From a virus, in the IMG/VR virus record IMGVR_UViG_3300045988_138147: a DNA stretch of 64,000 nt; one strand, written 5' to 3'. The notes under the pieces are model-generated. The model saw nothing but the letters and a program-made list of their open reading frames with translations. It did not search any database and was not told the DNA's origin. Below are positions 3,378 to 63,019 of the stretch, piece after piece. A program made the translations under genes and the position numbers. Position 1 is the stretch's first letter; each line of letters opens with the position of its first letter.

Positions 3378-4601
3378 TCATGATTTAGACTTTTTTAAGC
3401 CACCCGATATATAATCTATCACTTTCCTGTTAGCCTCATCAATCTTATCCCTGTCGAAATCAATGTATATATCTGTAACATCACAACCAAAGGAGTGTCC
3501 CAAAGCTAAAGATATCACATCTTTAGGGACATCCGCCTTATGTGCTAACGTAGCCCAGGTATGCCGGGCCCAATATGTTGAAAGTTCGGGGAACAATGGT
3601 TGCTTACTCTTTTTCCCACCAAGCCCTTTTCGTTCAAACGGACCTATCCCTTTAAGATTCTTATTCATCCTATGGGTAAAATCATGATAGTCTCCATAGT
3701 TATCTAATATATCTAGCAAATGAGTTTTACCTTGATACCTATCCAATATAGCTTGTGCTTCCGGCTCTATTTTAATAGAGTAAAACTTCTTTGTTTTCTG
3801 CCGATAATATTCTATACGTCCATCTATTATATCCTTGTGTTCAAGTAAAAGCAAATCACCTATATTTATTCCAACAAGATATACAATCAACATAAATATA
3901 TCCCTGTATTTCTTTTCAAACTCCTCACAAGGATAATCACGCAATAATCTCAATTGTTCAACAGATAAAGCACGTTTTCTAGTTTCTTCTTTTTTTATCT
4001 TATACTTTCGAAAAGGATATAAGGTAGTAATTTCTTCATCAATAGCATAATTGAATACTGCACGAATGTTACGCAGGTGAATAGAATAAGCGTTTACTTT
4101 CATCCCTGATTCAGCCATCCAACTTTCAAAATTAGACAGCCATTTCCTATCCATTGTGTCAAAGGTGCATTCCGGATCATATTCAAGCAGTTTATTTCTA
4201 GTTGTATTATAAACCGTTTTTGTTCCTGTATTACTCTTTATGGAAACAAACTCATCAAGATAATCTATAAAACATCTTGTTTTTTTTACAACCTTTTCAT
4301 CAAATACATATTCGCTGATTATCTCCTTGGCTTTAGCGGAAGGCAAAGAAGATAATCTAGCTTCATCGTCAATAATCAACTTTTCAGCTTTATTCTTCAA
4401 ACTGACAAGCCTTACATTCTTCACTTTATACTGTGGTACAGATTTGTCCAAATAAGACACTTCATTAAACTTTTCAGAAGACGGTGTAGATATTCCGGTG
4501 GAGAAAACAAACCTCGTTTTCCCTATCCGTATCACAAGAAGAATCATCTGAGACCCATCCTTCTTTGCTCTTGTATCAGGTATCAATCTTACTGTTGCCA
4601 T
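3378..4601 (-). CDS. int: tyrosine-type site-specific integrase
   Basis: C-terminal ARHTWATLA...LGHS...DIYIDF (R-H-R-Y catalytic pattern). Start moved to MATVRLIPDTRAKKDG (ATG 4601), because the ORF-track start at 4700 lies inside a terminator hairpin. Confidence 0.9.
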   Translation of the reverse strand: MATVRLIPDTRAKKDGSQMILLVIRIGKTRFVFSTGISTPSSEKFNEVSYLDKSVPQYKVKNVRLVSLKNKAEKLIIDDEARLSSLPSAKAKEIISEYVFDEKVVKKTRCFIDYLDEFVSIKSNTGTKTVYNTTRNKLLEYDPECTFDTMDRKWLSNFESWMAESGMKVNAYSIHLRNIRAVFNYAIDEEITTLYPFRKYKIKKEETRKRALSVEQLRLLRDYPCEEFEKKYRDIFMLIVYLVGINIGDLLLLEHKDIIDGRIEYYRQKTKKFYSIKIEPEAQAILDRYQGKTHLLDILDNYGDYHDFTHRMNKNLKGIGPFERKGLGGKKSKQPLFPELSTYWARHTWATLAHKADVPKDVISLALGHSFGCDVTDIYIDFDRDKIDEANRKVIDYISGGLKKSKS

Positions 4602-4605
4602 TGTT

Positions 4606-4622
4606 TTGTGACGTTTTTGTGA
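4606..4622 (+). repeat. arm-like repeat TTGTGACGTTTTTGTGA, left copy
   Basis: Exact 17-mer repeated at 4834-4850; contains two TTGTGA hexamers 5 nt apart. Confidence 0.7.
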
Positions 4623-4685
4623 CGATAAAGATACATAATACCCCCCAAATAACCATCTTAAACGGAATATTTTCTTTGATAATAA

Positions 4686-4719
4686 TATAAAAAAAAGCAC
4701 TTACCATTAGATAAGTGCT
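4686..4719 (-). terminator. intrinsic terminator following the tRNA fragment
   Basis: 9-bp stem aagcactta/taagtgctt, 8-nt loop, then T7 on the minus strand. Confidence 0.6.
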
Positions 4720-4731
4720 TGATATTCAGCA

Positions 4732-4773
4732 GAGCGGCAAACGGGACTCGAACCCGCGACCCTCAGCTTGGGA
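4732..4773 (-). tRNA. truncated tRNA: 3' half only (anticodon loop to discriminator), att core
   Basis: Minus strand reads TTCCCAA loop, GCTGA, GGGTC variable loop, T arm GCGGG-TTCGAGT-CCCGT, acceptor TTGCCGC, discriminator T. The upstream sequence cannot form the 5' half. Confidence 0.6.
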
Positions 4774-4833
4774 AATTTAAAATTTAAAATATAACATACT
4801 GATTATAACATATTTAAAAAATCATTATTTTTA

Positions 4834-4850
4834 TTGTGACGTTTTTGTGA
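4834..4850 (+). repeat. arm-like repeat TTGTGACGTTTTTGTGA, right copy
   Basis: Exact copy of 4606-4622 on the other side of the tRNA fragment; second shared block at 4667-4680 / 4861-4874. Confidence 0.7.
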
Positions 4851-4904
4851 TTATACTATATTATTTTCTTTGATTTGTGAAGATAAATATTGTTTCCCTT
4901 ATTA

Positions 4905-4934
4905 CAAAAAATAACCGGCAATTAATGCCGGTTA
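4905..4934 (-). terminator. intrinsic terminator downstream of recombinase 5283..6521
   Basis: 9-bp stem taaccggca/tgccggtta, 5-nt loop, followed by a T-run on the minus strand. Confidence 0.5.
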
Positions 4935-5282
4935 CTGTGATAGAATCTTATAGCCTCATTGACATATAATGATACTGATTGCTCCTTATCCAAGATAGCA
5001 GCCACATCCTCCTCTCTATCCCATTCACAATAGCAAAGATATCAATTCCAGAACGAAATACAAAAAGAAAACTATATTAATTAGTTATAGAGAGCCAATT
5101 TTGAAACAAAAACCAATCTTCTTAAAAAATTGCCATTAATGCAATATTTTTTACTTGCAGGATGAATGAAGAGAATTAATAGAACGGCAAGACTGGCGAG
5201 TTTGTATTTTTATTGACAGGAAACGAATGTTATGGATTGGGTTCGGAAAAACAAGTATAAAACAGATAGCCTCTATAGATTT

Positions 5283-6521
5283 CTACTGTCTGAGGTATTT
5301 TTCCGGAGATTTTTGAGGTTTTATTTGATTTTGTTTTACATTCCTGCGCTTAGAATATATTTGGTTAGCCCTTGTCAGATCCTTGATGACCGTTTCATCG
5401 AACACCTCGGAATATATCTCTGTTGTCTTGACCGATGTATGCCCCAAGAGTTTTTGGACGGTGGTTATCGGAACGCCTTGATGTACCAACAGAGTAGCAC
5501 AAGTGTGTCTGCTGGTATGGTAGGTGAACTTCTTGCCGATATGCGCCATTCTTCCCAATTTCTGCAATGTCCGATTAGTGTCCGAATTGCAACCTAATGC
5601 AGCCAGTTGTTCGATGCTGTCGTACTTCCGCATTATGCCCAGTGCCTTTCCGTTAAATAATAGATATAGCGGGATATTAAGTTTCACGCCTGTTTTGACG
5701 CTGTTCAACACTAACCATTCTTTTCCGTCTATCGTTATCAGATTTTTATAGGTAAGTTGTTTAAAATCGGAGAATCTCAATCCGCAATAGCAGCAGAAGA
5801 GAAATGCGTCCAGTATGTGCCGGCTGTTGTTCTTCCTGTCCGGCAGTTTAAGATTTTCCAATTTTTCCAAGTCGACGGGCATTAGGAAGTTATGTTCCTT
5901 CTTCTCCCGCTTGATCTTGAACTTACGGAAAGGATATGCCTCCTGTAATATATAACCTTCATTTATTGCTTCGTTGACCAAGGTACGAAGTATTCTCATG
6001 TGTTTCCCTACCGTGTTTACTTTCAATCCCTTGTTGCGGAGGAATGCGTCAAACTCCTTTAGAAACGTATAATTGATGTCCGTGAACTCTATCACGTTCC
6101 GAAATTCCTTCAATGTGGCTACTGTGCCCAGCATGTTATCCTTGGTTCCCGGTTTCCTATCGGAATTCACTATAACCTGTTGGGCGAACTTAAGAAACGA
6201 AACCACGGGTTTTACCCCCTTCCTTACAGCTTCCTTCAATGTGGATAAGTTAGATTCAAGACCTCTCTTCCAATAGCTTAACTCTATAGCCTGTAATTCC
6301 AATATATGCTCATATAGCATTGCATTAAGTTCTTGCGACTGCGGATGGTTGATTACTTGGGCACCATCCTTACTCCAACATTCCGGCTTTAGATAGACAT
6401 TGGTTTTAAAGTATACCTTCCTCTGATTCAGATAGGCTTCTATTTGTACAAGGGCTGTCCCCTGTCGGTTTAACTTGTTTTGCCGGTTATAAACTAAACG
6501 ATATCTGATCTTCTCTAACAT
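5283..6521 (-). CDS. tyrosine recombinase (Bacteroidota integrase family); candidate shufflon invertase and/or phage integrase
   Basis: HTSRHTCATLL...LLGHTSVKTTEIYSEV catalytic region. Family-typical N-terminus MLEKIRYRLVYNRQNKLNRQGTALVQIEAYLN (start taken at 6521; ORF track gives 6563). Confidence 0.9.
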   Translation of the reverse strand: MLEKIRYRLVYNRQNKLNRQGTALVQIEAYLNQRKVYFKTNVYLKPECWSKDGAQVINHPQSQELNAMLYEHILELQAIELSYWKRGLESNLSTLKEAVRKGVKPVVSFLKFAQQVIVNSDRKPGTKDNMLGTVATLKEFRNVIEFTDINYTFLKEFDAFLRNKGLKVNTVGKHMRILRTLVNEAINEGYILQEAYPFRKFKIKREKKEHNFLMPVDLEKLENLKLPDRKNNSRHILDAFLFCCYCGLRFSDFKQLTYKNLITIDGKEWLVLNSVKTGVKLNIPLYLLFNGKALGIMRKYDSIEQLAALGCNSDTNRTLQKLGRMAHIGKKFTYHTSRHTCATLLVHQGVPITTVQKLLGHTSVKTTEIYSEVFDETVIKDLTRANQIYSKRRNVKQNQIKPQKSPEKYLRQ

Positions 6522-6589
6522 ACTCAACTTTTTGTTTTTAAAGTTAAAAAAATTCTTCTGCATTTACAAAATAAACCACAAAAATTGTT

Positions 6590-6600
6590 CTGGGGGGACT
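6590..6600 (+). repeat. recombination-site candidate A (CTGGGGGGACT)
   Basis: Exact 11-mer shared with 7011-7021 and, inverted, with 7704-7714. Confidence 0.75.
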
Positions 6601-6994
6601 CCTGCCGATATCGACGAATACTAACAAGGGATTAGCAATGAGAACAGCATATTACGATCTTATTCAAGGCAAATTATACAAGATTTCATATAAAGAAGAA
6701 TTACATGTATACAAACCTATAATATGTTTACTATATGTACTGAAAGATGGTATATCATCTTACTATGTAGCCTCATTAAGTGGATATCGTAATGGGGTTT
6801 CCCATTATAAATTGATATGTGGAAATGAAATCCAATTTAAGCTGTATCAAAAGCTAAACAGTAGCAAATATGACTTTATACTGGAATGTCCTGAGAATTC
6901 AGGTGGTTTTATGGAAATAAAAGCCATGAATGATTTAACGGTTATTGAAACAACAGAATCATTAAGTGATTGGCAACAAATTGTAACAGAATAA
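6590..6994 (+). CDS. silent tail-fibre C-terminal cassette A (no own start needed; ORF-track ATG 6638 is internal)
   Basis: Frame is open from TAA 6572-6574. CTG GGG GGA CTC = LGGL is in frame, followed by LPISTNTNKGLAM... Confidence 0.6.
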   Translation: MGGLLPISTNTNKGLAMRTAYYDLIQGKLYKISYKEELHVYKPIICLLYVLKDGISSYYVASLSGYRNGVSHYKLICGNEIQFKLYQKLNSSKYDFILECPENSGGFMEIKAMNDLTVIETTESLSDWQQIVTE

Positions 6995-7010
6995 TAGCAT
7001 AAGTTGAGAG

Positions 7011-7021
7011 CTGGGGGGACT
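7011..7021 (+). repeat. recombination-site candidate B (CTGGGGGGACT)
   Basis: Exact 11-mer; in frame with the downstream ORF. Confidence 0.75.
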
Positions 7022-7316
7022 GATTGGTACAGTAACAGCCAATAAGGATGGATTAATGTCTAAAAATGGTTTTCTTGAAAGAAGCAAGGGCAACACATTA
7101 GACTTTAATGATTATACGATTTCAGGTATGTGGGTATTTTCTGATACGGGCTTTATTAATGGACCATCAGTGTATAAAGGGGGGATTTTATTAGTTTTTA
7201 AAACAACTAATGGGAATATATTGCAAATCTGTTGCGATTATACTAATTCTATTTTTATACGTATTTATTGGGGAGGATGGAAATCTTGGTCACAAATCAC
7301 AACAGTGGTGATATAA
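7011..7316 (+). CDS. silent tail-fibre C-terminal cassette B (ORF-track ATG 7056 is internal)
   Basis: Frame is open from TGA 7005-7007: LGGL IGTVTANKDGLMS... The C-terminal part is homologous to the expressed cassette (SGMW/SGMY, ILLVF/IMIVF, W..W). Confidence 0.6.
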   Translation: MGGLIGTVTANKDGLMSKNGFLERSKGNTLDFNDYTISGMWVFSDTGFINGPSVYKGGILLVFKTTNGNILQICCDYTNSIFIRIYWGGWKSWSQITTVVI

Positions 7317-7327
7317 TTTCCCCACTT

Positions 7328-7338
7328 CTGGGGGGATT
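7328..7338 (+). repeat. recombination-site candidate C (CTGGGGGGATT, 1 mismatch)
   Basis: 10/11 match to the core; followed by only a 27-codon open frame that runs through the terminator hairpin. Confidence 0.5.
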
Positions 7339-7346
7339 CTTGGGTA

Positions 7347-7383
7347 TAAAAAACGGGTGGTCCGGTACAAGCCGGTTCCACCC
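7347..7383 (-). terminator. intrinsic terminator of the leftward tail-fibre operon
   Basis: Stem GGGTGG-CCGG / CCGG-CCACCC with 6-nt loop, then T6 on the minus strand; 50 nt past the stop of 7433..7825. Confidence 0.6.
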
Positions 7384-7432
7384 GATCCTGATATGCACAA
7401 CGCCATGTGCGGTGCAAAGGTAATCCATGTTT

Positions 7433-7825
7433 CTAAGAAGCCAATACAAAAGTTCTAAAATCTCCCCACTCTCCGTTCAAACAACGTCTGAAACCAGCAA
7501 CATCAGCTCCCAAGCGGAATGCCATTTGAATTACATATCCTTGTCCATCGTTAAAAACTATCATTATGGAATAATTGAGAACAACACTAATTCCATTATT
7601 TCCGGTCACATGATACATTCCGCTTGCAGTTGCACTATTTACCTCTTCGTCTGTGGTCAATTTACGTTGTGGCATGAAAGGGTACAGATTCAAACTAGTG
7701 AAAAGTCCCCCCAGGATTGTAGCTAATTGCTGTTTTGTAACTTTTGCCACGTCATTTCCTTTTACAACCAACGCATAATCAAAGTCCGTCAACTGCGATA
7801 CTTCATTTAATTTTTTATCTGCCAT
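7433..7825 (-). CDS. small tail-fibre / receptor-binding protein: constant N-terminus (aa 1-41) plus the currently expressed variable C-terminus
   Basis: N-terminal MADKKLNEVSQLTDFDYALVVKGNDVAKVTKQQLATILGGL resembles fibre anchor motifs. The LGGL codons are the inverted copy of the 11-mer core. Confidence 0.7.
   Translation of the reverse strand: MADKKLNEVSQLTDFDYALVVKGNDVAKVTKQQLATILGGLFTSLNLYPFMPQRKLTTDEEVNSATASGMYHVTGNNGISVVLNYSIMIVFNDGQGYVIQMAFRLGADVAGFRRCLNGEWGDFRTFVLAS
7704..7714 (-). repeat. recombination-site candidate D (CTGGGGGGACT on the minus strand) inside the expressed gene
   Basis: Plus strand AGTCCCCCCAG; encodes L38-G-G-L41. Confidence 0.75.
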
Positions 7826-7838
7826 AATCGTATTTTTT

Positions 7839-8483
7839 TTAATTATTTATTACTGCTTGATTTTCTACCACTTGAACATAGCCACCCGAAACAAGATTTT
7901 CCAAATCGAATGCCATGCCTATTCCACTGTCACGGATACAGAGATAAAGGACTTCCTTATCGGTGTAATACTTGCCTTCTTCTAGCACCATGTTATGTGC
8001 CCAAGGTATAGGATCATCCAGTGTGCCGGAGTGCTCTATCTGCACAACCTTGTACAAGGATTCCGTACCCGTTCCCGGCTTCCAGTCCTCCTGCGGTGTA
8101 TGTTTCTGTATAACCTCATAGAGCGTGCTGCCATAGCGGAAGCGGAACTGCACATCAACTTCCGTACCCATCAGATCCTCCCATGCCGGAAAATAGTCTT
8201 TCTTCGACAATGCTTCTTCTGTAGTAAGCCCGGCATTGTTGATATTCGCTGAGATATCATTGAGCAGCGTATCCACACGGTCAAGTGCTTCAACGTCTAT
8301 AGCCGCCACATCAATAAATGATGCTTCGACAATCATCTGCTCCTTCTGCTTCGATGTGATCTCTTTCCACACGGCCACATCCTCAGGGCTGTTTATCAAT
8401 ACCTGATTTTCAAATCTTCGTTCCGACAGAGGCATATCCTCAACCTGTGTCAGATAACAATCATAACCTGCTTGTAATATCAT
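7839..8483 (-). CDS. phage structural/accessory protein of the fibre module
   Basis: 214-aa ORF tightly packed between fibre genes; Trp/Tyr-rich C-terminal half. Confidence 0.45.
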   Translation of the reverse strand: MILQAGYDCYLTQVEDMPLSERRFENQVLINSPEDVAVWKEITSKQKEQMIVEASFIDVAAIDVEALDRVDTLLNDISANINNAGLTTEEALSKKDYFPAWEDLMGTEVDVQFRFRYGSTLYEVIQKHTPQEDWKPGTGTESLYKVVQIEHSGTLDDPIPWAHNMVLEEGKYYTDKEVLYLCIRDSGIGMAFDLENLVSGGYVQVVENQAVINN

Positions 8484-8488
8484 ATCTT

Positions 8489-11400
8489 TTACTCAATTAA
8501 ATCCATACGTGTTATATACCAATGGTTGTTAAAGGCCTTCATCTCCAAAACATAAGGCCTTGCCATCTGAATTTCTGTCTTATTGTTATATGATCCCGCC
8601 AGTCCGCAGAAATAGTTCGTAGCCTTGTACTTGTCCGGATTCTTAGCCACCCTTGATGTCATGTCTACTACAAACTCCAGTTTCAATCCGTTCCATGATG
8701 ATGCGGGAGGAAGGGTTATGGTTCCGCCAAGACCATCAGCAGAAAAGAATGTAGATCCCTGAGTGGAAGGATTCACAGTCATGTTACCTTCCGAATCAGC
8801 CAGATTATCCATATCGCTTCCCGGTGAATAGAAGAGAGTGGCGGTGATTATACCTGTCACATTTGCCTTCGTGGAAACAAATTCACCCAGTTCATTCACC
8901 CGGTACGGAGCACTGCCCGGAACACCACCGCCAGCCCATATCCTTACAGGTGTCGTACCGGCTTCCTTGCTGCTTCCTCCTGTAAGACCGGCTACAACAT
9001 TGTTATTTGAGTCCTTTATTATCAGTTCATTGCCTTGGACGAAATCAAGACTGGCGTTCTTGGCAATAATAAGACTGGTATAGATAGGACCAACATTACT
9101 TAATTCCGTCCAGTAGGTAGTGTTGGTATAGGTTATAGAAGACGAAGATGTATGTGTTTTAATACACTTATAAACATCCCATCCGTCCACCACACTATTG
9201 TTTCTCACCATTACGATATCAATATACCGCGTGCCGCTTGTAAGGGCTTCGTCATTTCTGTACGTTACCCCGGTTGTCCATTCGGAATCCCGTATGATAC
9301 AGCCCTGTATTCCTTGTACGCCCTGATCTCCCTTATCTCCTTTGTCCCCCTTTTCACCATCATCACCCTTGTCGCCTTTTTCTCCGGTATCGCCCTTCTC
9401 AGCCCATACGTCATATTCGGCTGTATTCACTTCACCCGTCAAGCAGTATCCGCCATCGCTGAACGTGAACCGGTTGCCGGCATTATCCGTCCAACACCAC
9501 AAGGGAGGATTCGTAGTGGATGCCTTGGCTACATAAGAGCCACCACCCATCGAAACGACACCCATCTTGGGAACGACCATTCCGGTCTTGAACTGCCCCA
9601 TTTGGGTGTAACCCTGTCCATCCACGCCATCCTGAATCATCGGCACGCTCTCTATATCAACCAATACACCTTTCGCATCATAGAATGAAAATATGATTTT
9701 GGAAGAAATGGATGAAGAAGGAATAGAGGCACCATTACTGGTACTGATTTCAGAACCGTTATCTATGGCGTATTTCAAGGTTCCATCCGTAGTGACTTCC
9801 GAAACACCGCCAACTGTTTTCATCCTCGTTGCAGAAATCCCGGAAACGGAATACGTACCGTCTTTCTTCTTCACAATATTGCTCGCCGAAGTGACCAGAC
9901 TATACAATACCGCATTCTTACCGCCACGTACACCGGCAAGCGTGAACTTGAGTACACGTGACTGTTCCACACCGTCAGCCATAGCCTTCACGGTAATTGA
10001 TATCTCAGTACGGTCAGCAAGAGCCGTTCCTTTCGCTACAGATAATGTAATATCACCCGTAGACAAGTCATAAGAGGATGTTACACCTGTCACGCTCTGC
10101 ACGGATATGGAGGAAAGGGAAAGCTTTGTTGCTCCGTTCCACATGGATGCTGTTGTCGTAATTGACACCTCATCCACAGTTTTCCCATTTTCGTCCAATG
10201 CAGCATTATCCATCTGGTTATCCAAGTCGGCACTGATCGCATTGAACGAATGGTTAGCCCACGGTTCGGGAGTAGAGAAAGCACCCCATATACCGTCCTT
10301 CTTCGTTCTTTTGCTTACCCATTCATAGGGTATGCTTGCCGACACGCCTACAGGATCATCATTCCAGCCGGAAGGCACATAATCGTCAGTCTGTGATGTT
10401 TCCGGAGTGGAAGGTCTTGTATTCGTCGTGGTGTTCGTGAAGATAAACTCATGATCTTTCGCATCCCTTCCGTCTTTTCCGCTTTGGACAAGAAGTTCAT
10501 ATTCATCGGTATTTATCTCTCCTGTAAGACAATAACCGCCATCGCTGAACGTAAACCGGTTGCCGGCATTGTCCGTCCAGCACCATAAGGGAGGATTTGT
10601 AGTGGCTACCTTGGAAAGGAATGAACTTCCTCCCATTGTAACGATACTCATTTTGGGAACAACCAAGCCGGAATACCACGGACCGCTATTGGTCACGCTC
10701 ACACCGTCCTTTCCCGGTGCTCCCGGTGTTCCCGTATCACCTTTAGACGCAATTTCCAGCCAGTCGCCATTAGATCCCGGTACAGAGGACGAACCATCCT
10801 CATTGATACACGCCCACATGCTTCCGTTATAAGACAAGCTGTCGTAGTAATCGTAATGTACGCCAGGTATATAGCCTTCCTCACGGAAATTCAAAGTCTG
10901 CACAGGTGTTCCATCCGGCTTTATCTGCTTGATGATACCTGTCATATATATATTATTCAGATACATGGAATAACCGTCCATGTTCAGTCCGAATATATTC
11001 AGATTGGAAAGGTCGCCATATTGTAGGGCAACATTGGCGGCGGAGATCTCCCATGTATTCTGTTTCCACAACATACGGGTGTAAGTCCTTGTTTCGTAGA
11101 CTGAGGTCTGGCGCTCCGTATTAGTGAAACTGCCGTATGCCACGAAAGTCATCATCTCAAAAGGATCGAAAGAAGAAGACCACGATGAAGAAGTGGGGCG
11201 CAACTGGTACTTGAATGTTTCGTTTCTTTCACCTGTAACTTCCGTAACCGTGAAATAGACTGTACAGAATCCGGCAAAACGTCTGTTGCCCTTTCCATCG
11301 TCGTAATCCTCCGTAGCGTTCCCGGTGATGTTATGATAGATACCCATACAGATATCTCCTACTGCGACAGCACCAATCTCACCATCTTCCAGCTTAAGTG

Positions 11401-12073
11401 TACATGTCTTGGTCCCTGTATCTACCGTTTCTATAATGCCGGCTCCGGGCGCACGCCACTTGTCGCCCAGCGTGACCATCACACGATTGTATCTTAATTC
11501 GGGAACTTCGAGAAACCGGCGGATAAACATGCTCTCAAACTCCCCATGCCCTGTATCGAATATCTTGGCTCCGAATCCGGTTAAGCCGCTTGCAAAACCA
11601 TTCTTTCCGAAAACAGCACCGGCAAACATACTGAGAAGAAATTTAGTGGAATCCGCCACGTCCTTCCGCAAGAATATCTCTTTCAGCTTCTCCGCACTGT
11701 TCTCTATCTCAGTCATTACACGCAACGCGCTCATCACATCTTCATCGGTGTAGGTGATATCTTCGTCACCCTGCTTTACGATGCGGTTTATCAGGTTTCC
11801 TGCTATCTTAAGCCCCTTAAGGTAATTAATGATCCCTTGCGCATCATCATCGTTCAATGCGGATAAGAACCAGTTTTGTACAGGTGTGTCCTCATCCAGC
11901 GTATATGCGGAATTGGCATGATCGGCATTGGTGACATCACCGCCGCCACCACTGCCGCCACCGCCGTTCTGCTTTATCTCTTCAACCTCAATGGAGATCT
12001 TGCTAAAGTTGCTGTTGATGCGGTCTGCCGTTTCGCTCCAAGTTCCTGTTTTGTTTATTGTATTAAGCTCCAT
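8489..12073 (-). CDS. large tail-fibre protein with collagen-like G-X-Y run and duplicated internal domain
   Basis: GDTGEKGDKGDDGEKGDKGDKGDQGVQGIQG; GGGGSGGGG linker; two copies of ...TTNPPLWCWTDNAGNRFTFSDGGYCLTGE...; start taken at MELNTINKTG (12073). Confidence 0.8.
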   Translation of the reverse strand: MELNTINKTGTWSETADRINSNFSKISIEVEEIKQNGGGGSGGGGDVTNADHANSAYTLDEDTPVQNWFLSALNDDDAQGIINYLKGLKIAGNLINRIVKQGDEDITYTDEDVMSALRVMTEIENSAEKLKEIFLRKDVADSTKFLLSMFAGAVFGKNGFASGLTGFGAKIFDTGHGEFESMFIRRFLEVPELRYNRVMVTLGDKWRAPGAGIIETVDTGTKTCTLKLEDGEIGAVAVGDICMGIYHNITGNATEDYDDGKGNRRFAGFCTVYFTVTEVTGERNETFKYQLRPTSSSWSSSFDPFEMMTFVAYGSFTNTERQTSVYETRTYTRMLWKQNTWEISAANVALQYGDLSNLNIFGLNMDGYSMYLNNIYMTGIIKQIKPDGTPVQTLNFREEGYIPGVHYDYYDSLSYNGSMWACINEDGSSSVPGSNGDWLEIASKGDTGTPGAPGKDGVSVTNSGPWYSGLVVPKMSIVTMGGSSFLSKVATTNPPLWCWTDNAGNRFTFSDGGYCLTGEINTDEYELLVQSGKDGRDAKDHEFIFTNTTTNTRPSTPETSQTDDYVPSGWNDDPVGVSASIPYEWVSKRTKKDGIWGAFSTPEPWANHSFNAISADLDNQMDNAALDENGKTVDEVSITTTASMWNGATKLSLSSISVQSVTGVTSSYDLSTGDITLSVAKGTALADRTEISITVKAMADGVEQSRVLKFTLAGVRGGKNAVLYSLVTSASNIVKKKDGTYSVSGISATRMKTVGGVSEVTTDGTLKYAIDNGSEISTSNGASIPSSSISSKIIFSFYDAKGVLVDIESVPMIQDGVDGQGYTQMGQFKTGMVVPKMGVVSMGGGSYVAKASTTNPPLWCWTDNAGNRFTFSDGGYCLTGEVNTAEYDVWAEKGDTGEKGDKGDDGEKGDKGDKGDQGVQGIQGCIIRDSEWTTGVTYRNDEALTSGTRYIDIVMVRNNSVVDGWDVYKCIKTHTSSSSITYTNTTYWTELSNVGPIYTSLIIAKNASLDFVQGNELIIKDSNNNVVAGLTGGSSKEAGTTPVRIWAGGGVPGSAPYRVNELGEFVSTKANVTGIITATLFYSPGSDMDNLADSEGNMTVNPSTQGSTFFSADGLGGTITLPPASSWNGLKLEFVVDMTSRVAKNPDKYKATNYFCGLAGSYNNKTEIQMARPYVLEMKAFNNHWYITRMDLIE

Positions 12074-12206
12074 ATATTCTGTTCTACTTTTACCATTCCG
12101 CATCCGGATGTACTTCTACGGACAGATGGTTCATTATTCTGATGATTAATTCTCGTATCATAAATATATGTTTTGAGTGTTACTGATAACTTTCCGGGTT
12201 ACTCTA

Positions 12207-14624
12207 TTACATCGAAGCAATTCCCTCAACCGATATGGTCACATTCTCCATTATATTCTTCACTGTATAAATATCAAGTCCGGGAGCTGATAAAGTGCTG
12301 TCTTTGGCAACAGAGCTTCCATTAGCCTTTACGCTAGCCGAGTTACCATCGTATCCCTCCTGTATGGTCAGCTTTACACTAAACTCCCCACCTTCAGAAA
12401 CGGGAGACACGCTGTTATTATATGCTTCAAGCTGATAGCCGTTTCCCTGCTGCATTGTAACAGTATATGTACGTGTGGAAGCCGCCATAGCCTCAATGTC
12501 TGCGACAGGAGTCATTTCCATCATTCGGGCAATTATTTCACGGGCGATCCTTTCATAGTAAGGTATGCCTCCGTGTGTCGGGTCAATGATGGTATTATCA
12601 GTATAATGGCTGTAAAACCAAGTCTTGTTCATATCATTGATACCGGTCTGCAATTTGGATTCAACGTATTTGATCCCCCACAGATTCAGAACCTTGATCA
12701 TGTCAGCGGAAATATTGTTTACCGCGGTAGAAGTTTCACACACGTGAGGAGGTAAGACAAACAGGATATTGATGTTACGTGCGACAGGCACCTGATTAAT
12801 TCCGGTGTAATTCACCTCATCATAGTATCCTTTCACTTTCATATATCTGTAGTATAATTTGGACAAGAGCACATTGATCGCTCCGCAAAGTGTGTTTGTA
12901 TCATGGTTTGACATGGAGATATCTCCCAATGTGTAGCCGCCTCTGTCGTTGGTTCCTCCTGCGACATTTATCAATACTGCATCTTCTGCGAGAGCATTGA
13001 TACGGATATCCTGCCAGAAAGCATTACCATTTGAGCCGCTGATACGCGTTCCTCCGATTCCGTGCCATTGTGACATCGTACCTAACATCCGGTCTATAAA
13101 AAACTGGTATCCGGGATTCTGAGAGATGCTGTCCCCCAATGTATCAGTAATCTTGCCGGTCCACCATGTTCTGATATCCCAGTTACGGACTATCCGGTAA
13201 AGATACAGATAGTCAGTCGGCACAGTCTGTTTCACATGACTGATATACGGTGTCCTGTCTCCACCTCCGCCCAGTTTTACCATCAAATCACCTGTCTTGT
13301 TATTAATGTGGAACTCAAACCGTATCTTAGAGGTTCCTTTACGGGCTGCGAACATAAGATAAGGGGAACTACCACCTTGTGTGTTCAGTTCCCGTTTCGG
13401 AATATATGTACCATCATCTGTATAACAATATATATGTCCTGATGTAACACCCTGAACGGAAATGACTCCTTCTGATGGACAGTCTATAAAATCCGTGATA
13501 CGGTATGAGGGATTGGATACAACCGCACCGGTTGACGCGTCAAGATACGCATTGGTCAGATTGCCGTTAAACAGATTGTATGTTTTTGTTTCAGCGAGTG
13601 ACAGGCTCTCACCCATCTTCTCCCACTGTGCATTCTTTCTGCCATAAATACGGTCATCCACTGGCGCTTCTTCCACCGCATTGATTTCTTTCAGCAGATC
13701 GGGATTTTTAATCCAATACTCCGCAGAATTGGAAGGGGAGTCGTTGGTCACAACCAAAGAGGACACATTACTGGTTATAATCATGTTGACCTCTTCCATG
13801 TTTGCTATATCCACATAATCCGCAATCTGGAAATAGGATGCCGGAAGTCCCATGCCCGTCTGCGTCTTGAACGAACCGGTGGTTATTATAGCACCCTTAT
13901 AATCCAGAATAAAAAATGTCACGCTATAATATTGGTTTGCCCAAATTTTATCGGTATTCTTTACCTTAAATATCGGATAAATGGCCCATCCATCAGAATT
14001 CTGCATATAGCCGGTAGCGCCTTTTATAAACCGCACATTCAGTAGTGCGTTTTCCATATCAAGCATGGAATTTCCTCTCACTCTATAATCACTCAGAACA
14101 TTGACCGGAAGATCGTACTCCTTGTTCCAGTAATTGACAAGGTTCTCAAGAAATATTTTACCACCATTCTTGGCAAAACACATTGAAACCTTGTTATACA
14201 CGAGTTTGGTATTCAGAGTGAATGAGTACGTTCCAATTCCTGTATTATAACTGAAGCCTCCTGTATCATCATCTATATATGCCAACGCCGTAGGGGTGTT
14301 ACCCGTATTCTTCAAAATATCCTTGAATAGAATAAACGCCGGACTGTCCTCCCTACTGACCTCAATACAAAGATAATCACTGTCATTTACATATTCTTTT
14401 GTTCCGGCAATAATCTTGACGTTATCTCTTATCACAATCTTGTCGTACAACGTTGTGGAATTATCAACAAGTTTCATCACATAATTAGAAAGGGAGTCAT
14501 TTGGAGCTAATTCAGCTAGTTCCATAGCCAGACTCTTTCGTGTATTGGAGTTGACCACCGCATCATAGATGGTAGCCGGGAATATGGTTTGTCCACCCTT
14601 GGTCAGTTTATGCATTTTTACCAT
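12207..14624 (-). CDS. tail-associated protein with SGNH/GDSL-type esterase domain
   Basis: Ordered blocks GDSIS, GGTND and DPTHGG in the C-terminal half; 805 aa in the fibre module. Confidence 0.65.
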   Translation of the reverse strand: MVKMHKLTKGGQTIFPATIYDAVVNSNTRKSLAMELAELAPNDSLSNYVMKLVDNSTTLYDKIVIRDNVKIIAGTKEYVNDSDYLCIEVSREDSPAFILFKDILKNTGNTPTALAYIDDDTGGFSYNTGIGTYSFTLNTKLVYNKVSMCFAKNGGKIFLENLVNYWNKEYDLPVNVLSDYRVRGNSMLDMENALLNVRFIKGATGYMQNSDGWAIYPIFKVKNTDKIWANQYYSVTFFILDYKGAIITTGSFKTQTGMGLPASYFQIADYVDIANMEEVNMIITSNVSSLVVTNDSPSNSAEYWIKNPDLLKEINAVEEAPVDDRIYGRKNAQWEKMGESLSLAETKTYNLFNGNLTNAYLDASTGAVVSNPSYRITDFIDCPSEGVISVQGVTSGHIYCYTDDGTYIPKRELNTQGGSSPYLMFAARKGTSKIRFEFHINNKTGDLMVKLGGGGDRTPYISHVKQTVPTDYLYLYRIVRNWDIRTWWTGKITDTLGDSISQNPGYQFFIDRMLGTMSQWHGIGGTRISGSNGNAFWQDIRINALAEDAVLINVAGGTNDRGGYTLGDISMSNHDTNTLCGAINVLLSKLYYRYMKVKGYYDEVNYTGINQVPVARNINILFVLPPHVCETSTAVNNISADMIKVLNLWGIKYVESKLQTGINDMNKTWFYSHYTDNTIIDPTHGGIPYYERIAREIIARMMEMTPVADIEAMAASTRTYTVTMQQGNGYQLEAYNNSVSPVSEGGEFSVKLTIQEGYDGNSASVKANGSSVAKDSTLSAPGLDIYTVKNIMENVTISVEGIASM

Positions 14625-34563: not shown

Positions 34564-35037
34564 ATGGTAAGAGATAGTATAACGACCCAAGCCATACCGG
34601 GTGGCTTCTCCGTAATAGTAAGCGGTTTTATAGCAGAATCATTGGAGCACATGATACCTTGGATTATTGTATCATTTGCAGTAGTGATATGTGATTTGGC
34701 TTTTGGAATAAGGAAAAGCCTTTTAATGGGCGAAAAGGTTCGTTTCTCTAGTGCAATACGCCGCACAATGGGTAAACTTGTAACCTACTTCGCCTTTGTT
34801 TGTATGGTTGTCATGATAAACATTGCATCCGGCAGCAAATGGGATATAGACATATACTCCTGTTTGTTAGTTTGCTTCATTGAATTTTGCTCTATCATAT
34901 CAAATATATTGAAGCCCAAAGGATACAGCTTTAATATGCTTAAGGCGTTAGGTCTGTTTGGTAAGAAGGTGCTTGATGTAGAAAAAGAGGATATAAATGA
35001 AATAATAACAGAAAATAAAAAGGAGGAAAAGAAATGA
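34564..35037 (+). CDS. holin (phage_holin_4-like pattern)
   Basis: Multiple TM helices, EFCSIISNILKPKG motif, charged C-terminal tail, adjacent to the endolysin. Confidence 0.6.
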   Translation: MVRDSITTQAIPGGFSVIVSGFIAESLEHMIPWIIVSFAVVICDLAFGIRKSLLMGEKVRFSSAIRRTMGKLVTYFAFVCMVVMINIASGSKWDIDIYSCLLVCFIEFCSIISNILKPKGYSFNMLKALGLFGKKVLDVEKEDINEIITENKKEEKK

Positions 35038-35039
35038 GT

Positions 35040-35492
35040 TTAATTGATTTTATTTTTATTGCGCCTTTTGCACTTTATGCCATAATCTACGCATTTTCGG
35101 TAAAAGAATCCTGTAATTCCGATGAATCCATAGAAATATGACGTGCATTTAAGCGCTATTCTTAATACATATTCATGCCCGTTTAAATAGCTTTCTGGCG
35201 AACGCAGTAAAAGAAATGCAGCTGTCAATGTTGGCATAATAAGTATAGGTATTTCCATATTAAACCTGTATCGGGAACAAACGGAGCATAAACATAACAA
35301 ACAAAAAGAATAATAAATAGATAATGTAGACGCAGATATGGCAAAAATTACTTGCAAATAAAGCTCTAAGGATTTAAAAGCAGGTATGTATAAATACATT
35401 ATAGTAAATATTAATGGTAGTTGGATGAGAAAAGCACTGAACACATTTTTCTGTTCAGGAGTATAGCTTCTAATAAGTTCTGATAAGTCCAT
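35040..35492 (-). CDS. polytopic membrane protein, antisense to the lysis genes
   Basis: About four hydrophobic helices, basic C-terminus; opposite strand between holin and endolysin. Confidence 0.5.
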   Translation of the reverse strand: MDLSELIRSYTPEQKNVFSAFLIQLPLIFTIMYLYIPAFKSLELYLQVIFAISASTLSIYYSFCLLCLCSVCSRYRFNMEIPILIMPTLTAAFLLLRSPESYLNGHEYVLRIALKCTSYFYGFIGITGFFYRKCVDYGIKCKRRNKNKIN

Positions 35493-35551
35493 ATTTTTTG
35501 CGACAAAAATAATAGTAATTTTATAATTTAAAGATAAGGAGGAAAAGAAAA

Positions 35552-36130
35552 ATGGCTAATATTGAACATTTCATACCATTTCTTATAAAATGGGAAGCTG
35601 GTATAAGTAAGAAAAGCAATGAAACCAATGAGTCTCTTTTTCAAAGAGCAAGAAAAACAGGATGGGCTGATGATCCCGATGATTTAGGAGGACAAACTAT
35701 GGTAGGTGTGACAATGGCTACCTATGAGGAATATTGTCGTAGAAAAGGTTATCCAAAACCTACGACCGGAAGGTTGATGGATTTGTCATATAACGATTGG
35801 AAAAGTATCTTGAAGATGTTGTATTGGGATAGATGGAATGCGGATGAAATAAGAAGCCAAAGTATAGCAGAGATAGTATGCGATTTTGTATGGGCTTCTG
35901 GGGTACATGGTATTAAAGTACCGCAGGATTTGGTTGGTGTGATTCCTGATGGCATTGTCGGGCCTAAGACACTCGCCGCAGTAAATTCCCGTAATCCCCG
36001 TGAATTGTTTGACCAGATCAAGATTGCACGGTTTGATTTCATCGAGGATATATGCCGGAAACGTCCTGCAAACAATAAATTCAAACGGGGCTGGATGAAC
36101 CGTATAAATGATATAAAATTTGAGGAATAA
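35552..36130 (+). CDS. endolysin, GH108-type muramidase with PG_binding_3-like C-terminus
   Basis: KWEAG...DDPDDLGGQTMVGVT (GH108 signature) and C-terminal RGWMNR motif. Confidence 0.85.
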   Translation: MANIEHFIPFLIKWEAGISKKSNETNESLFQRARKTGWADDPDDLGGQTMVGVTMATYEEYCRRKGYPKPTTGRLMDLSYNDWKSILKMLYWDRWNADEIRSQSIAEIVCDFVWASGVHGIKVPQDLVGVIPDGIVGPKTLAAVNSRNPRELFDQIKIARFDFIEDICRKRPANNKFKRGWMNRINDIKFEE

Positions 36131-44029: not shown

Positions 44030-44794
44030 TTAAAGCATACTTTTAGCGTATTCCGCACGTCTGTTTATCTTAGTGCGCAATGCGGTAAGGCGATTCCGTG
44101 TAAACTCTTTATTGGTAGCCGTCCTTAATCCCATTGCATTTAGCTTGTCCGCTACTTTGTCAACATCCTGCGGTGTTTGGCAGTCTTGCAGCATTACGGC
44201 AATCGTCCGGTTTAGCTTGTCGTCCATCGCTTCTTTTCTTCTCTTTTCCCCGTTCACCTTACCTCCTTTTGCCTGTCCGGATGTAGTACCACCCAAAGAG
44301 GTGCACCAGTTGCCCGATTTTGAGTAAAAGCCGCCTTCTTGCTCTATCTTTTTCTTTCTTGCTTCCAATGCAGCTTTAGTACGGTTCTTTATATTAAGTC
44401 GTTCTATCTTAGCAAAAGTTGCCATCATGGATAATTGCAGCTCTATAAGTGGATTCATGTCGGAGCAATCAATATCAAGATTCACGTTTGAGATGATTAA
44501 CCGCAACCCCTTTGGGGCGAAAAATTCGGCTATCATATCACTAAGTTCTATAATGCCACCTCTTGTAAGGCGTGAAACTTCCGACACTATAATAGTATCT
44601 CCTTTATTCGTCTTTGATAACAATTCGGATAGGTTTCTTTTTTTGTACGAAACGCTTCCGCTTATTCCTTCATCGGAAATAATCTCATCAATTTGCAGCC
44701 CTTTTGATTCGGCATACTTTGCTATTATATTTCTCTGGCTTTGTGCGTCTTGCTCGTCAGTCGAGAAGCGGTGATAGGCATATATCTTTCCCAT
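44030..44794 (-). CDS. serine recombinase (resolvase/invertase family)
   Basis: N-terminal KIYAYHRFSTDEQ catalytic Ser motif, VSRLTRGG; 254 aa. Confidence 0.85.
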   Translation of the reverse strand: MGKIYAYHRFSTDEQDAQSQRNIIAKYAESKGLQIDEIISDEGISGSVSYKKRNLSELLSKTNKGDTIIVSEVSRLTRGGIIELSDMIAEFFAPKGLRLIISNVNLDIDCSDMNPLIELQLSMMATFAKIERLNIKNRTKAALEARKKKIEQEGGFYSKSGNWCTSLGGTTSGQAKGGKVNGEKRRKEAMDDKLNRTIAVMLQDCQTPQDVDKVADKLNAMGLRTATNKEFTRNRLTALRTKINRRAEYAKSML

Positions 44795-60963: not shown

Positions 60964-61956
60964 TTATTTTTTTATAACTACCGCCATTGTACTAATAGAA
61001 GTGCCACTCTCTTTAAACTCGCCTGCGCTGATTTCAAACACTTCTCCATGTACTTCTTCCAACCATTCCCGGAACTCAACACATTTCTTTTCAGACGCGA
61101 ATTTCCAATGCTGACTAGTTATAGCTGCAAGAATTCCACCTTCTTCCAAGCGTTCATACATAAGTCTTACATGGTCTATGTCTTGATTGCCGGAGAATGG
61201 AGGATTAGCAATAATCTTAGTGTAATGCCCTACACTGTCTTTCGTAAAATCTTCATCAAGCAATATTACGTTATCAAGTGTATGAAGGAACTCCCTGTTT
61301 TCTGGCATCAGTTCATAACATTCAACTGTTACTGACGGGCACGACCGATGAATCGCTTTTATCAGAGCACCACGTCCGGCACTTGGTTCAAGTACGGTAT
61401 CTGTTTCATGAATTCCACCGGCAAGCATTACCAGCCAGTCTGCAATATCAGCAGGTGTTTCAAAGAACTGAAAATCTTTTTGCAAATCGCATCGCTTACC
61501 TTCTTTCAAGATGGAGAACACACGTTCCGGATTAAAAGGAAATGTGAAACCCTGTACCTTCCCACCTTGCCATGAGCCGCCGGCTTCTTCTATCCACTTT
61601 TTTGCTTCGGCATAAGATTTTTTATTGAATTGAACTTGAGGAAGTTTGAGGATATTGTTCTCAAGAGTACAATGTTTCAATATCTCTTCCACGCTCCATT
61701 TCTTACCTTCATCAGCCTGTTTTTTCTTTTCGTCCGTTGAAGCGTCCGGCGCTAAAAGTGAAGATATTTTTTGAACAACCGTATTGCTCGCATTCACGAA
61801 GGTATTGACACAGGATAGCGCTTCCATGAGAAATTTTGTATCAACATGTCCGGTCTCGTCATAGACGTCTATCCCTTCGGTCATGGATGACAGTTCATTG
61901 AGCTGCGCTACACTACCATGTAACGTTTCGATTAAAATCTTTTTTTTGTTCGTCAT
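60964..61956 (-). CDS. SAM-dependent DNA methyltransferase (N6-A / N4-C type)
   Basis: Motif I VLEPSAGRGAL and motif IV IIANPPFSG. An alternative start at 61884 would remove the 44-nt overlap with the recombinase. Confidence 0.8.
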   Translation of the reverse strand: MTNKKKILIETLHGSVAQLNELSSMTEGIDVYDETGHVDTKFLMEALSCVNTFVNASNTVVQKISSLLAPDASTDEKKKQADEGKKWSVEEILKHCTLENNILKLPQVQFNKKSYAEAKKWIEEAGGSWQGGKVQGFTFPFNPERVFSILKEGKRCDLQKDFQFFETPADIADWLVMLAGGIHETDTVLEPSAGRGALIKAIHRSCPSVTVECYELMPENREFLHTLDNVILLDEDFTKDSVGHYTKIIANPPFSGNQDIDHVRLMYERLEEGGILAAITSQHWKFASEKKCVEFREWLEEVHGEVFEISAGEFKESGTSISTMAVVIKK

Positions 61957-63019
61957 AACTTTTCTGTAAATAAATTCTAGTTGTGTCTACACTCCCATGG
62001 CCTAAAAGGTCAGCGAGTTGAATTACATCTTTGTTTTTTTTCAGGAACATTTTAGCAAAGAAATGCCGGAAGGCGTGCGCGTGCATTTTCCTTGGATCAA
62101 TGCCGCAATGTTTTCCCCATGCTTTCAAGTGCTGGGAAAAGCCACGCTGTGTGATCGGGCCGAATCTCCCTACCGCAAAAATCCCGGTTTTACCATATTC
62201 TTTAGCGTAAACCTTCGCTTCCTGCTGCAATTGTTTTTGAAAGAAAAATCGACGGTACTTGTTACCCTTTCCTTTTAATACCACTTCCCCGGATATGATG
62301 TCTTCCCACGTAAACTGCTGGAATTCCGACAGACGGGCGCCCGTTGTTCCCAAAACCTTAATAAAGAAATAGTAATCCTTATTGTTTTTTGCCTTGAGAT
62401 ATTCCAACAGCCGGTTATATTCCTCCTCGGTCGGCACATTGTTCACATCAAGCTTGCGCTTTATTTTGGGACGCTTCAGTTCTATAGGCTTCTTCAGCCA
62501 TTTGGAAAATCTTTCTATTGCTGTAATCCGCAAACGGATGGTAGCGGGAGATAATTTTTCTTCTTCAAGACTTTTTATAAACCTCCTGCAATTATCCATG
62601 TTTACCTCATTGGCGTATTCGAAATACTTCTGCATGGATGTGTAATATATATAAACTGTATGAGAAGAGTAATCATTGTTGTCAGTCAGCCATATAATGA
62701 AATCATTAAGTTGTTTCTTGTTCTTATCCGAAATGACATCAAGTTTTTCCAAAGGTTTCACCGCCTTTCCCCTTTTTCCATATCCGATGTTGAGATAGGA
62801 TAATAGATCGCATATAGCTGAACACATTAGCGAATGACGCACCATGACATCTGCATTTTCACGCTTATAAACCAGATAGCCACGACGATTGACATCTTCA
62901 GTACGTTCAAGAAAATCCGTTACATATTTGATATATTTCCCGACAGTATCATAAGTTCTGCCTGTTGTGTATAAGTAGGAAATATAATCAGTTAATATCT
63001 TCTGCCTGTCATTATTCAT
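61913..63019 (-). CDS. tyrosine recombinase, XerC/D-like
   Basis: GARLSEF..., HAFRHFFAKMFL, LLGHGSVDTTRIYLQ (R-H-R-Y pattern); N-terminal SAM-like core-binding domain. Confidence 0.85.
   Translation of the reverse strand: MNNDRQKILTDYISYLYTTGRTYDTVGKYIKYVTDFLERTEDVNRRGYLVYKRENADVMVRHSLMCSAICDLLSYLNIGYGKRGKAVKPLEKLDVISDKNKKQLNDFIIWLTDNNDYSSHTVYIYYTSMQKYFEYANEVNMDNCRRFIKSLEEEKLSPATIRLRITAIERFSKWLKKPIELKRPKIKRKLDVNNVPTEEEYNRLLEYLKAKNNKDYYFFIKVLGTTGARLSEFQQFTWEDIISGEVVLKGKGNKYRRFFFQKQLQQEAKVYAKEYGKTGIFAVGRFGPITQRGFSQHLKAWGKHCGIDPRKMHAHAFRHFFAKMFLKKNKDVIQLADLLGHGSVDTTRIYLQKSYDEQKKDFNRNVTW

Follow-up and report, generated by a model that had tools for sequence, protein, structure and literature searches.

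A probable multiple-inversion shufflon on the tail-fibre tip gene of a tailed phage

The locus described here lies in a 64,000-nucleotide stretch of IMG/VR virus record IMGVR_UViG_3300045988_138147, hereafter called the window, which encodes a tailed phage with genes for terminase, portal, tape measure protein, holin, lysin, a repressor-like regulator and a helicase. Gene 7433-7825 on the minus strand, the last gene of a tail-fibre operon, encodes a product of 130 amino acids (aa) that consists of a constant 41-aa anchor ending in LGGL and an 89-aa tail, tail D. An earlier note, made from the sequence alone, had proposed that the C-terminal end of this protein is swapped by DNA inversion. Our analysis makes it very likely that the locus is a multiple-inversion shufflon acting on a phage tail-fibre tip gene, and the comparative evidence indicates that the shufflon is real and probably active. 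Both orientations are represented among its four crossover sites, of which one, within gene 7433-7825, is on the minus strand and the others are on the plus strand. In relatives their orders are permuted, as successive inversions would produce, and the constant N-terminal part is joined in frame to alternative C-termini at the crossover site.

In the mechanism that we propose, the three promoterless and startless cassettes (A, B and C) located between the expressed gene and a tyrosine recombinase gene are stored alternative ends. The adjacent recombinase would pair the core site inside the gene with an oppositely oriented core, strands would be exchanged within the core, on the left of base 10, and the DNA between the paired cores would invert. 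Because the core is asymmetric, a left flank would always be rejoined to a right flank, so that the anchor would always be in frame with one of four tails. Successive inversions would also reorder the cassettes, and each switch most probably changes the surface receptor or capsule to which the phage binds. The features of the locus are as follows.

6590-6600, plus strand: recombination core of site A, CTGGGGGGACT; homology blocks with relatives stop at 6600.
7011-7021, plus strand: recombination core of site B, CTGGGGGGACT; recognised from the core match and homology breaks.
7328-7338, plus strand: recombination core of site C, the 10/11 variant CTGGGGGGATT; recognised from the core match and homology breaks.
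7704-7714, minus strand: recombination core of site D, CTGGGGGGACT, within the expressed gene, where it spans codons L38-L41 plus one base of codon 42, the first.
7715-7825, minus strand: constant N-terminal anchor, codons 1-37; a predicted beta-hairpin, then a helix across the LGGL joint.
7433-7714, minus strand: tail D, the expressed C-terminus; LGGL, a predicted 89-aa knob domain (AlphaFold model, fold matches) and the stop.
6590-6994, plus strand: silent cassette A; LGGL and a 130-aa tail, with no start of its own before ATG 6638; fused to the anchor in related loci L086 and L087.
7011-7316, plus strand: silent cassette B; LGGL and a 97-aa tail, probably of knob type; fused to the anchor in L081.
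7328-7423, plus strand: cassette C; LGGF and a 27-aa tail that would yield a knob-less product; fused to the anchor in L002.
5283-6521, minus strand: tyrosine recombinase of 412 aa (426 aa from the alternative ATG 6563), the probable shufflon invertase, from its domains and co-distribution.

Core sites and rearranged relatives

The core positions and strands reported in the earlier note were confirmed exactly. These four sites are the only core matches with at most one mismatch in the window, and all of them fall within 1.1 kilobases (kb); the mean expectation from dinucleotide-preserving shuffles was 0.37, and none of 100 shuffles reached four. Across the related loci the core consensus is CTGGGRGRAYT, with variation at positions 6, 8 and 10 and with variants mixed inside single loci. 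Of 236 informative cases, all 236 have the base at position 10 moving together with the right flank, as compared to 10 exceptions among 240 for the left flank, which places strand exchange to the left of this position. Site C is joined to at least 11 different left flanks across the related loci, and the T that it has at position 10 is kept with the right flank in every case. The sequences next to the core are weakly conserved, with CCGAT, GAGAG or CACTT before it and GATKGG after it. The core has neither dyad symmetry nor a dyad of the gix type; a reading of the site as a dyad (CCGATC ... GATCGG around TGGGRGRACT) was considered, for which the flank frequencies give weak support, and it was not retained.

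A second motif, T[TA]ACA[AG]AA, is located 19-26 nucleotides (nt) 5' of the core, where it is non-coding at site A and coding at site D, and its conservation is highest at positions -25 to -20 in 67 non-redundant left flanks. It is possibly an accessory recombinase-binding element, a function that is speculative, and the conserved TTACAAAA motif 26 nt before each core might be an arm-type site, to which the invertase would attach by its unusual arm-binding domain. The two copies in the window are equally spaced from their cores.

6564-6573, plus strand: upstream motif TTACAAAATA, 26 nt 5' of site A.
7731-7740, minus strand: upstream motif TTACAAAACA, 26 nt 5' of site D, within coding sequence.

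Evidence for inversion comes from relatives of the locus. A search of IMG/VR with the 130-aa protein identified 79 loci, and the wider set of related loci comprises about 90. Many of the IMG/VR matches cover residues 38-130 only, some at up to 99% identity, and others cover just the first 40-50 residues or so; in both kinds the break is at LGGL. At the DNA level, all homology blocks between the window and its relatives end at 6600, 7011, 7328 or 7704/7714. The earlier note had suggested that homologous phages be compared for alternative arrangements, and such arrangements are present, with their breaks on the 11-mer.

An exact look-up of the 412-aa recombinase in public assemblies returned ten contigs. 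L082 and L088 have the same arrangement as the window. L087 matches the window at 100.0% identity across 4731-6600 and 7704-12210, and here the anchor is fused to tail A (the called product is 171 aa), followed by C in forward orientation and by D and B inverted; every breakpoint relative to the window is on the 11-mer. This anchor-A fusion, together with the other configurations in relatives, bears out the inversion swaps of the C-terminus that had been predicted from the window. Further arrangements of the same half-sites are seen in L081, L083, L084 and L086, with a recombinase identical to that of the window, and L081 and L086 have six sites each, representing one set of half-sites recombined between the two. 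Likewise, L004 and L008 have five left and five right half-sites in common and are one inversion apart. Among the relatives, each of the four tails (A, B, C and D) was found fused to the anchor.

We rejected assembly artefacts as a source of the rearrangements, since assembler k-mers exceed the 11-base-pair (bp) repeat in length and the junctions are both exact and reciprocal. Neither RecA-type recombination nor assembler misjoins would act on so short a repeat.

Several observations nevertheless weigh against the interpretation of the locus as an active shufflon on a fibre-tip gene. The alternative arrangements were recovered from different samples, and it is conceivable that they represent fixed differences. 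The number of sites varies (4 to 6) among phages with identical recombinases, and events besides inversion must therefore also occur. The recombinase at 5283-6521 is located only about 550 bp from the core of an attachment (att) site and has an arm-binding domain of the integrase type. As for the protein, the assignment of the tails to the knob domain described below is drawn from marginal E-values (~1e-3) and a predicted structure, and tail A, which has no recognised fold, differs from the knob of tails B and D.

The first of these observations leads to the possibility of a frozen mosaic, according to which the cassettes and cores are relics and the arrangements in the relatives have been fixed by lineage, with no inversion on the timescale of a population. 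In line with this, the comparative evidence is all from different assemblies, the cassette content varies between phages (4 to 8 sites), the recombinase gene of L078, a locus with 2 sites, is absent over a fully covered interval, and L026, which has 1 site, gave no recombinase match. However, L087 and the window are several inversions apart despite being 100% identical over flanks of 1.9 kb and 4.5 kb, and five configurations are associated with an identical recombinase protein. Moreover, 32 of the 79 contigs end within 1 kb of the locus, an indirect sign of mixed populations, and a homologous locus in BV01-like phages has all configurations in reads (PMC13596623). We therefore think that a frozen mosaic is very improbable. 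Inversion is probably ongoing in the present phage population, and the tails would set the host range.

Startless cassettes and the fold of the tails

Direct reading of the window upheld what had been said about frames, upstream stops, internal ATGs, LGGL codons and tail lengths. Each core starts a reading frame that begins with LGGL (LGGF at site C), all four cores are in frame with their tails, and the minus-strand core encodes L38-G-G-L41 of the 130-aa product. In the frames of A and B on the plus strand, in-frame stops are found 5 codons (TAA 6572-6574) and 1 codon (TGA 7005-7007) before the core, and the ATGs at 6638 (A) and 7056 (B) are internal and in frame. The silent cassettes are thus startless, as previously claimed, in the sense that their frames open at the core and contain no start before the internal ATG. 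The tails encoded by A, B and C are 130, 97 and 27 aa long, as compared to the 89 aa of the currently expressed tail D.

One could still argue that the open reading frames 6638-6994 and 7056-7316 are independent small genes, and that the 11-mer is a conserved coding motif of a gene family. Each frame indeed contains an ATG, from which gene callers annotate proteins of 118 aa and 86 aa. Yet each frame starts at the core, 1-5 codons after a stop, the conservation of residues begins at LGGL, ahead of the ATGs, and the same cassettes are fused in frame to the anchor in relatives. In addition, public gene calls provide one and the same knob with many unrelated, spurious N-terminal extensions. Taken together, these data leave next to no chance that the cassettes are separate genes.

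The public gene calls for silent cassettes (P0122-P0186) are worth noting as such, since they start with many unrelated N-terminal extensions, such as MQKYPLEKVV... and MEILVTNHNSGDIISPL... These extensions, which are read through from the sequence 5' of the core, are a systematic annotation artefact of shufflons.

Cassette C deserves a separate comment. It is convergent with tail D, about 16 nt apart, in all but about five loci, and L002 is the only one of 70 loci in which it occupies the expressed position. A hairpin that resembles an intrinsic terminator overlaps with it on the opposite strand; this structure was missed by a simple pattern scan and is evident in an RNA fold.

7345-7383, minus strand: intrinsic-terminator-like hairpin GGGUGGAACCGG...CCGGACCACCC followed by GUUUUUUAUA, 3' of the tail D stop; from sequence reading and the RNA fold.

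Cassette C is mainly the terminator of tail D on the opposite strand and yields a knob-less tail of 27 aa, which amends the earlier account of this alternative end.

What could the tails be doing? Neither the 130-aa protein nor the cassettes belong to any family in Pfam, PHROGs or NCBIfam. However, a profile built from 32 diverse short tails matched (hmmsearch) the side fibre of the F2 pyocin (25ve, E = 7.6e-4) and the fibre of the R2 pyocin (6cl6, E = 8.5e-4; 6ct8, E = 0.016), in alignments that cover the pattern D.N..T.SG.Y...P...G.L.VF...Q...R...W..W. Further weak matches to phage fibre and collar proteins were intermixed with chance ones, such as ribosomal protein S2. A first AlphaFold model, made from an alignment of D sequences only, was discarded because of its low score (pLDDT, the predicted local distance difference test, of 53). 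A more diverse alignment gave a model with a pLDDT of 82, in which a beta-hairpin and a helix across the LGGL joint are followed by a beta-sandwich. Foldseek matched this model to a chain of the phi812 baseplate (9euf_8, E = 6.9e-4) and to the R2 pyocin fibres 6ct8 and 6cl6 with a probability of 1.0 and a root-mean-square deviation of 2.8-2.9 Å over 87 columns, and the named matches among predicted viral structures were mostly tail fibres, receptor-binding proteins and baseplate proteins.

The earlier view that the protein is a fibre part is thus sustained by both the profile and the predicted fold, which identify the short tails, including B and D, as tail-fibre knob domains. Its claim that cassette B is homologous to the expressed C-terminus is weakly supported, at the profile level, where both tails fit one family profile and the D-family profile aligns B over 59 columns (E = 0.0039), exactly at the motifs that had been named; the pairwise BLASTP comparison is not significant (E = 1.4). 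With marginal significance, then, tails B and D appear to be knob domains of the pyocin type, and from the profile and fold matches the 130-aa protein would consist of a short anchor and one knob. The pyocin knobs (PDB 6CL6, 6CT8, 25VE) have the motif pattern and fold in common with the shufflon tails at a sequence identity of about 13%, whereas they are internal parts of fibres of 360-700 aa instead of a single knob behind a 41-aa anchor. Since tails B and D match the pyocin knob domain, switching most probably alters the choice of receptor or capsule.

Two further genes of the operon precede the shufflon gene.

7839-12103, minus strand: operon context directly upstream of the shufflon gene; genes for a collagen-like tail fibre of 1204 aa (8489-12103) and for a protein of 214 aa (7839-8483).

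No chaperone gene is present at the locus. The gene for the 1204-aa tail fibre contains an internal duplication of 175 bp (78% identical) at 9411-9585 and 10497-10671, which matches the protein repeat PPLWCWTDNAGNRFTFSDGGYCLTGE.

The recombinases and the attachment site

Four recombinase genes were identified in the window, of which those at 5283-6521, 3378-4700 and 61913-63019 are of the tyrosine type and the one at 44030-44794 is a serine recombinase. The gene next to the array, at 5283-6521, encodes a protein with the Pfam domains Arm-DNA-bind_5, Phage_int_SAM_5 and Phage_integrase (PF00589). A tyrosine recombinase beside site A had been correctly noted, as had the distance from site A to its start of 27 bp (ATG 6563) or 69 bp (ATG 6521); the amendment to be made is that the protein has the full architecture of an integrase, including an arm-binding domain. 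The 412-aa form is on record in 106 blocks of public assemblies, in which no 426-aa form is recorded. A homologue (61-100% identity) is located beside the array in nearly all related loci with flanking sequence (57 loci), and the gene has been kept in both genome contexts of the shufflon module. The loci in which it is absent (L078) or gave no match (L026) have just 2 sites and 1 site, which counts in favour of this enzyme. The enzyme is thus both adjacent to and co-distributed with the array, yet also near the att site. We infer a role in inversion rather than in integration from the co-distribution, and consider it likely that this adjacent enzyme is the invertase.

An alternative is that the shufflon is real and is operated by another enzyme: the serine recombinase at 44030-44794, following the logic of Gin and Min, the integrase encoded at 3378-4700, or an invertase supplied in trans by the host. 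The 254-aa serine recombinase, encoded on the minus strand, has a Resolvase domain and weak similarity, below the curated cut-off, to DNA invertases and Mpi. There are also two further tyrosine recombinases in the window, and trans-acting invertases are known in Bacteroides (see also PMC6109161). On the other hand, relatives of the serine recombinase at 44 kb occur on 34 IMG/VR contigs, none of which is among the 79 shufflon contigs, the second tyrosine recombinase gene, at 3378-4700 on the minus strand, is missing from almost every related locus, a gix-like dyad is absent from the core, and the adjacent recombinase has been retained irrespective of genome context. For these reasons, we give only a slight chance to any enzyme other than the adjacent one.

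Integration may instead be the task of the second tyrosine recombinase. The 3' 45 nt of a tRNA-Gly(CCC) gene are located at 4731-4775 on the minus strand, between two tyrosine recombinase genes. In L131, an intact tRNA-Gly(CCC) is directly beside the start of the 3378-4700 homologue, with host cob genes beyond it, and in L087 the 45-nt tRNA fragment is followed by genes of the host cob region. These contexts put the 3378-4700 gene in the canonical position of an integrase. The fragment between the recombinase genes may correspond to an attP-like junction or to the junction of tandem elements. A dual role of the 5283-6521 enzyme as integrase and invertase was considered and put aside, rather than dismissed, given that the 3378-4700 recombinase is located beside an intact tRNA-Gly. 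The motif CACAAAAACGTCACAA is present on both sides of the tRNA fragment (4603-4628 and 4834-4851), as arm-type sites would be. The 25-bp att sequence of BV01 is absent from the window and from all related loci, and the window phage should therefore integrate otherwise than BV01.

Some further observations concern these genes. Site A is located 27-69 bp 5' of the recombinase start, and all sequence further upstream is swapped at each inversion that involves site A, so that recombinase expression could depend on the configuration. In relatives, a segment of about 1.1 kb is present at the position that corresponds to 5002-5020 in the window (11495-12600 in L081), with genes for proteins of 79 aa and 68 aa and most of a 95-aa HTH_7 gene, which might encode an excisionase. 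The segment is bounded by a 19-bp direct repeat (GGGATAGAGAGGAGGATGTGG-like), of which the window has one copy together with only the 3' end of the HTH_7 gene; the window hence appears to be a deletion variant. The third tyrosine recombinase, at 61913-63019 on the minus strand, is XerC/D-like with the domains Phage_int_SAM_1 and Phage_integrase.

Known systems, the cassette pool and wider context

How new is this locus? The earlier note had pointed to differences from classical systems in the core, in the type of recombinase and in the number of ends on a small fibre protein, but as claims of novelty these are undone by the design of the Rin shufflon (PMC6109161) and by the BV01-like family (PMC13596623). 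In BV01-like phages of Phocaeicola vulgatus, an active tail-fibre shufflon was described in a preprint dated 16 September 2026 (PMC13596623); it extends over 1.7 kb, is flanked by a recombinase, contains the 10-bp motif TGGGAGAACT and was seen in reads in all of its configurations. As in our phage window, a cassette array between the recombinase gene and the tail-fibre gene's distal end is divided by a directional 10-bp core, and inversions shift the position of the stop and the C-terminus. The core of the window, C-TGGGGGGACT, is identical to the published motif at 8 of 10 positions and differs from it at two, and cores of the TGGGAGAACT type (CTGGGAGAACT) are the commonest in the related loci, with 127 sites. 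L027, a BV01-like locus, has 5 TGGGAGAACT sites over 1.7 kb, in agreement with the layout in the preprint, a recombinase that is 61% identical to that of the window, and homologues of tails A and D. The two differ in the anchor, which is 41 aa in the window versus about 95 aa in L027, and in the attachment site, a tRNA-Gly fragment in the window versus the 25-bp att of BV01. Judged by these sequence comparisons, the window locus is a member of the BV01-like shufflon family.

The Rin shufflon of Bifidobacterium prophages (Mavrich et al., 2018; PMC6109161) also combines a phage tyrosine recombinase with asymmetric crossover repeats of 11 bp, one ahead of each variable C-terminal cassette, has the constant N-terminal part on one side and the recombinase on the other, and acts on a receptor-binding protein. 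However, the Rin core is unrelated (TTCCCTAACCC), and Rin has no arm-binding domain, whereas the recombinase of the window has Arm-DNA-bind_5. The Rin tails resemble the receptor-binding head of TP901-1 rather than pyocin knobs, and the hosts are from different phyla.

Two classical systems provide a second frame of reference. In the R64/IncI1 shufflon with the recombinase Rci, multiple inversion at an asymmetric site next to a tyrosine recombinase gene creates alternative C-termini, including short or null segments; the target is the pilus adhesin pilV on a conjugative plasmid, and the 19-bp sfx site has a 7-bp spacer and a conserved 12-bp arm. The window locus is similar in its multiple inversion, polar asymmetric site, adjacent tyrosine recombinase, constant N-terminus and short segments, but differs from the Rci/sfx group in the core sequence and in having a phage knob protein rather than pilV as the target. 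Inversion by Gin of Mu, Cin of P1, Min of p15B and Pin swaps the C-terminus of a fibre and changes the host range, with Min acting at multiple sites (summarised in PMC6109161); these are serine recombinases that act, with the help of an enhancer and Fis, on dyad sites of 26 bp whose crossover is 2 bp long, and they usually co-invert a chaperone gene. The window locus falls outside this group, since the adjacent enzyme has a PF00589 domain and the serine recombinase is located 36 kb away.

Among GenBank phages, a megablast search with 5200-8500 gave no match. Bacteroides phage BS-TP3 has partial similarity in tail genes only, and no shufflon was found in the first 14 kb of its record, the part examined. 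A contig from a Phocaeicola vulgatus isolate has a recombinase that is 94% identical and an array of six sites, and this was the sole plausible host name among four short contigs that matched. It is suggestive of Phocaeicola vulgatus as the host of the window phage, which would be a gut phage of the Bacteroidaceae.

The pool of cassettes is very large. The roughly 90 related loci encode 206 distinct tails in 62 clusters at 50% identity, every one of which starts at a core, and the number of sites per locus ranges from 1-2 up to 8. At least 35 different tails are in the expressed position in the 70 loci with an identifiable expressed gene, and the anchor of the window recurs at 93-100% identity in about 30 loci, where it is followed by no fewer than 20 different tails. 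Conversely, tail D is joined to two divergent variants of the 41-42-aa anchor as well as to an unrelated anchor of about 95 aa, all of which end in LG[GE]L.

The segment with C and D is 99.5-99.7% identical in L002 and L007, in which the recombinase regions are about 70% identical to that of the window, and 98.9% identical in L011, which has a recombinase of 63% identity and a different type of anchor. The homology of this segment stops at both cores, or a few bases from them, in L002 and L007; in L011 it stops at the D core and begins about 9 nt inside the C core. Such near-identity between phages with recombinase regions of just 65-70% identity indicates that cassettes also move between lineages. 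Beyond a private switch, the locus may be part of an open, integron-like exchange system common to several phage lineages, in which cassettes would pass between co-resident phages by two-site exchange mediated by the recombinase. One pool of knob cassettes (at least 62 clusters) is joined to at least three anchors, with associated recombinases of 61-100% identity. We propose this extension tentatively, and hold it to be possible rather than probable.

The capsules of the Bacteroidaceae vary by phase variation. Several interchangeable receptor-binding knobs would let a phage keep pace with this variation, which bears on the prediction of host range and on the design of phage therapy in the gut. 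The window adds another member to a kind of shufflon that has been described before, and it extends the BV01 type to a phage that differs in attachment site, anchor and core variant, and to a very large shared pool of cassettes. What the present comparisons appear to add is the size of this pool, the core-bounded exchange between lineages, the probable pyocin-knob identity of the tails and a separation of the putative integrase and invertase roles. A practical consequence is that silent cassettes are mis-annotated as independent genes with spurious N-termini, and that metagenome contigs tend to break at the locus. The short in-frame LGGL joint also represents a natural splice point for the engineering of fibre tips.

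A few minor observations were made on the surrounding genomes. In several relatives (L001/L081-type), homologues of the region at 36.5-39 kb in the window adjoin the fibre module at its recombinase end, in the opposite relative orientation, and a structural block of about 31 kb (~4880-35800, from the recombinase through the lysin) therefore differs in orientation or placement from one genome type to another. In genomes of the L131/L087 type, the structural block and the integrase module look like a prophage of about 36 kb bounded by two recombinases. In L089 (9467-9620), a type I-C cas operon and an array of clustered regularly interspaced short palindromic repeats (CRISPR; repeat GTCACACCCTACGTGGGTGTGTGGATTGAAAC) pass directly, after the second repeat, into the 5' end of a shufflon cassette, LGGLLGINDTWFRTRSIY... 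Here, the assembler has probably joined host and phage via a spacer identical to the cassette, in which case the CRISPR system of the host would target a fibre-tip cassette. A lysis module at 34564-36130 follows the tape measure gene, with a 157-aa holin-like protein and an endolysin with GH108 and PG_binding_3 domains; the 157-aa protein occurs in 5465 blocks of public assemblies, from which this group of phages must be very common. Finally, a tandem repeat at 63711-64000 with a period of about 144 bp and copies that are 86-93% identical reaches the end of the window.

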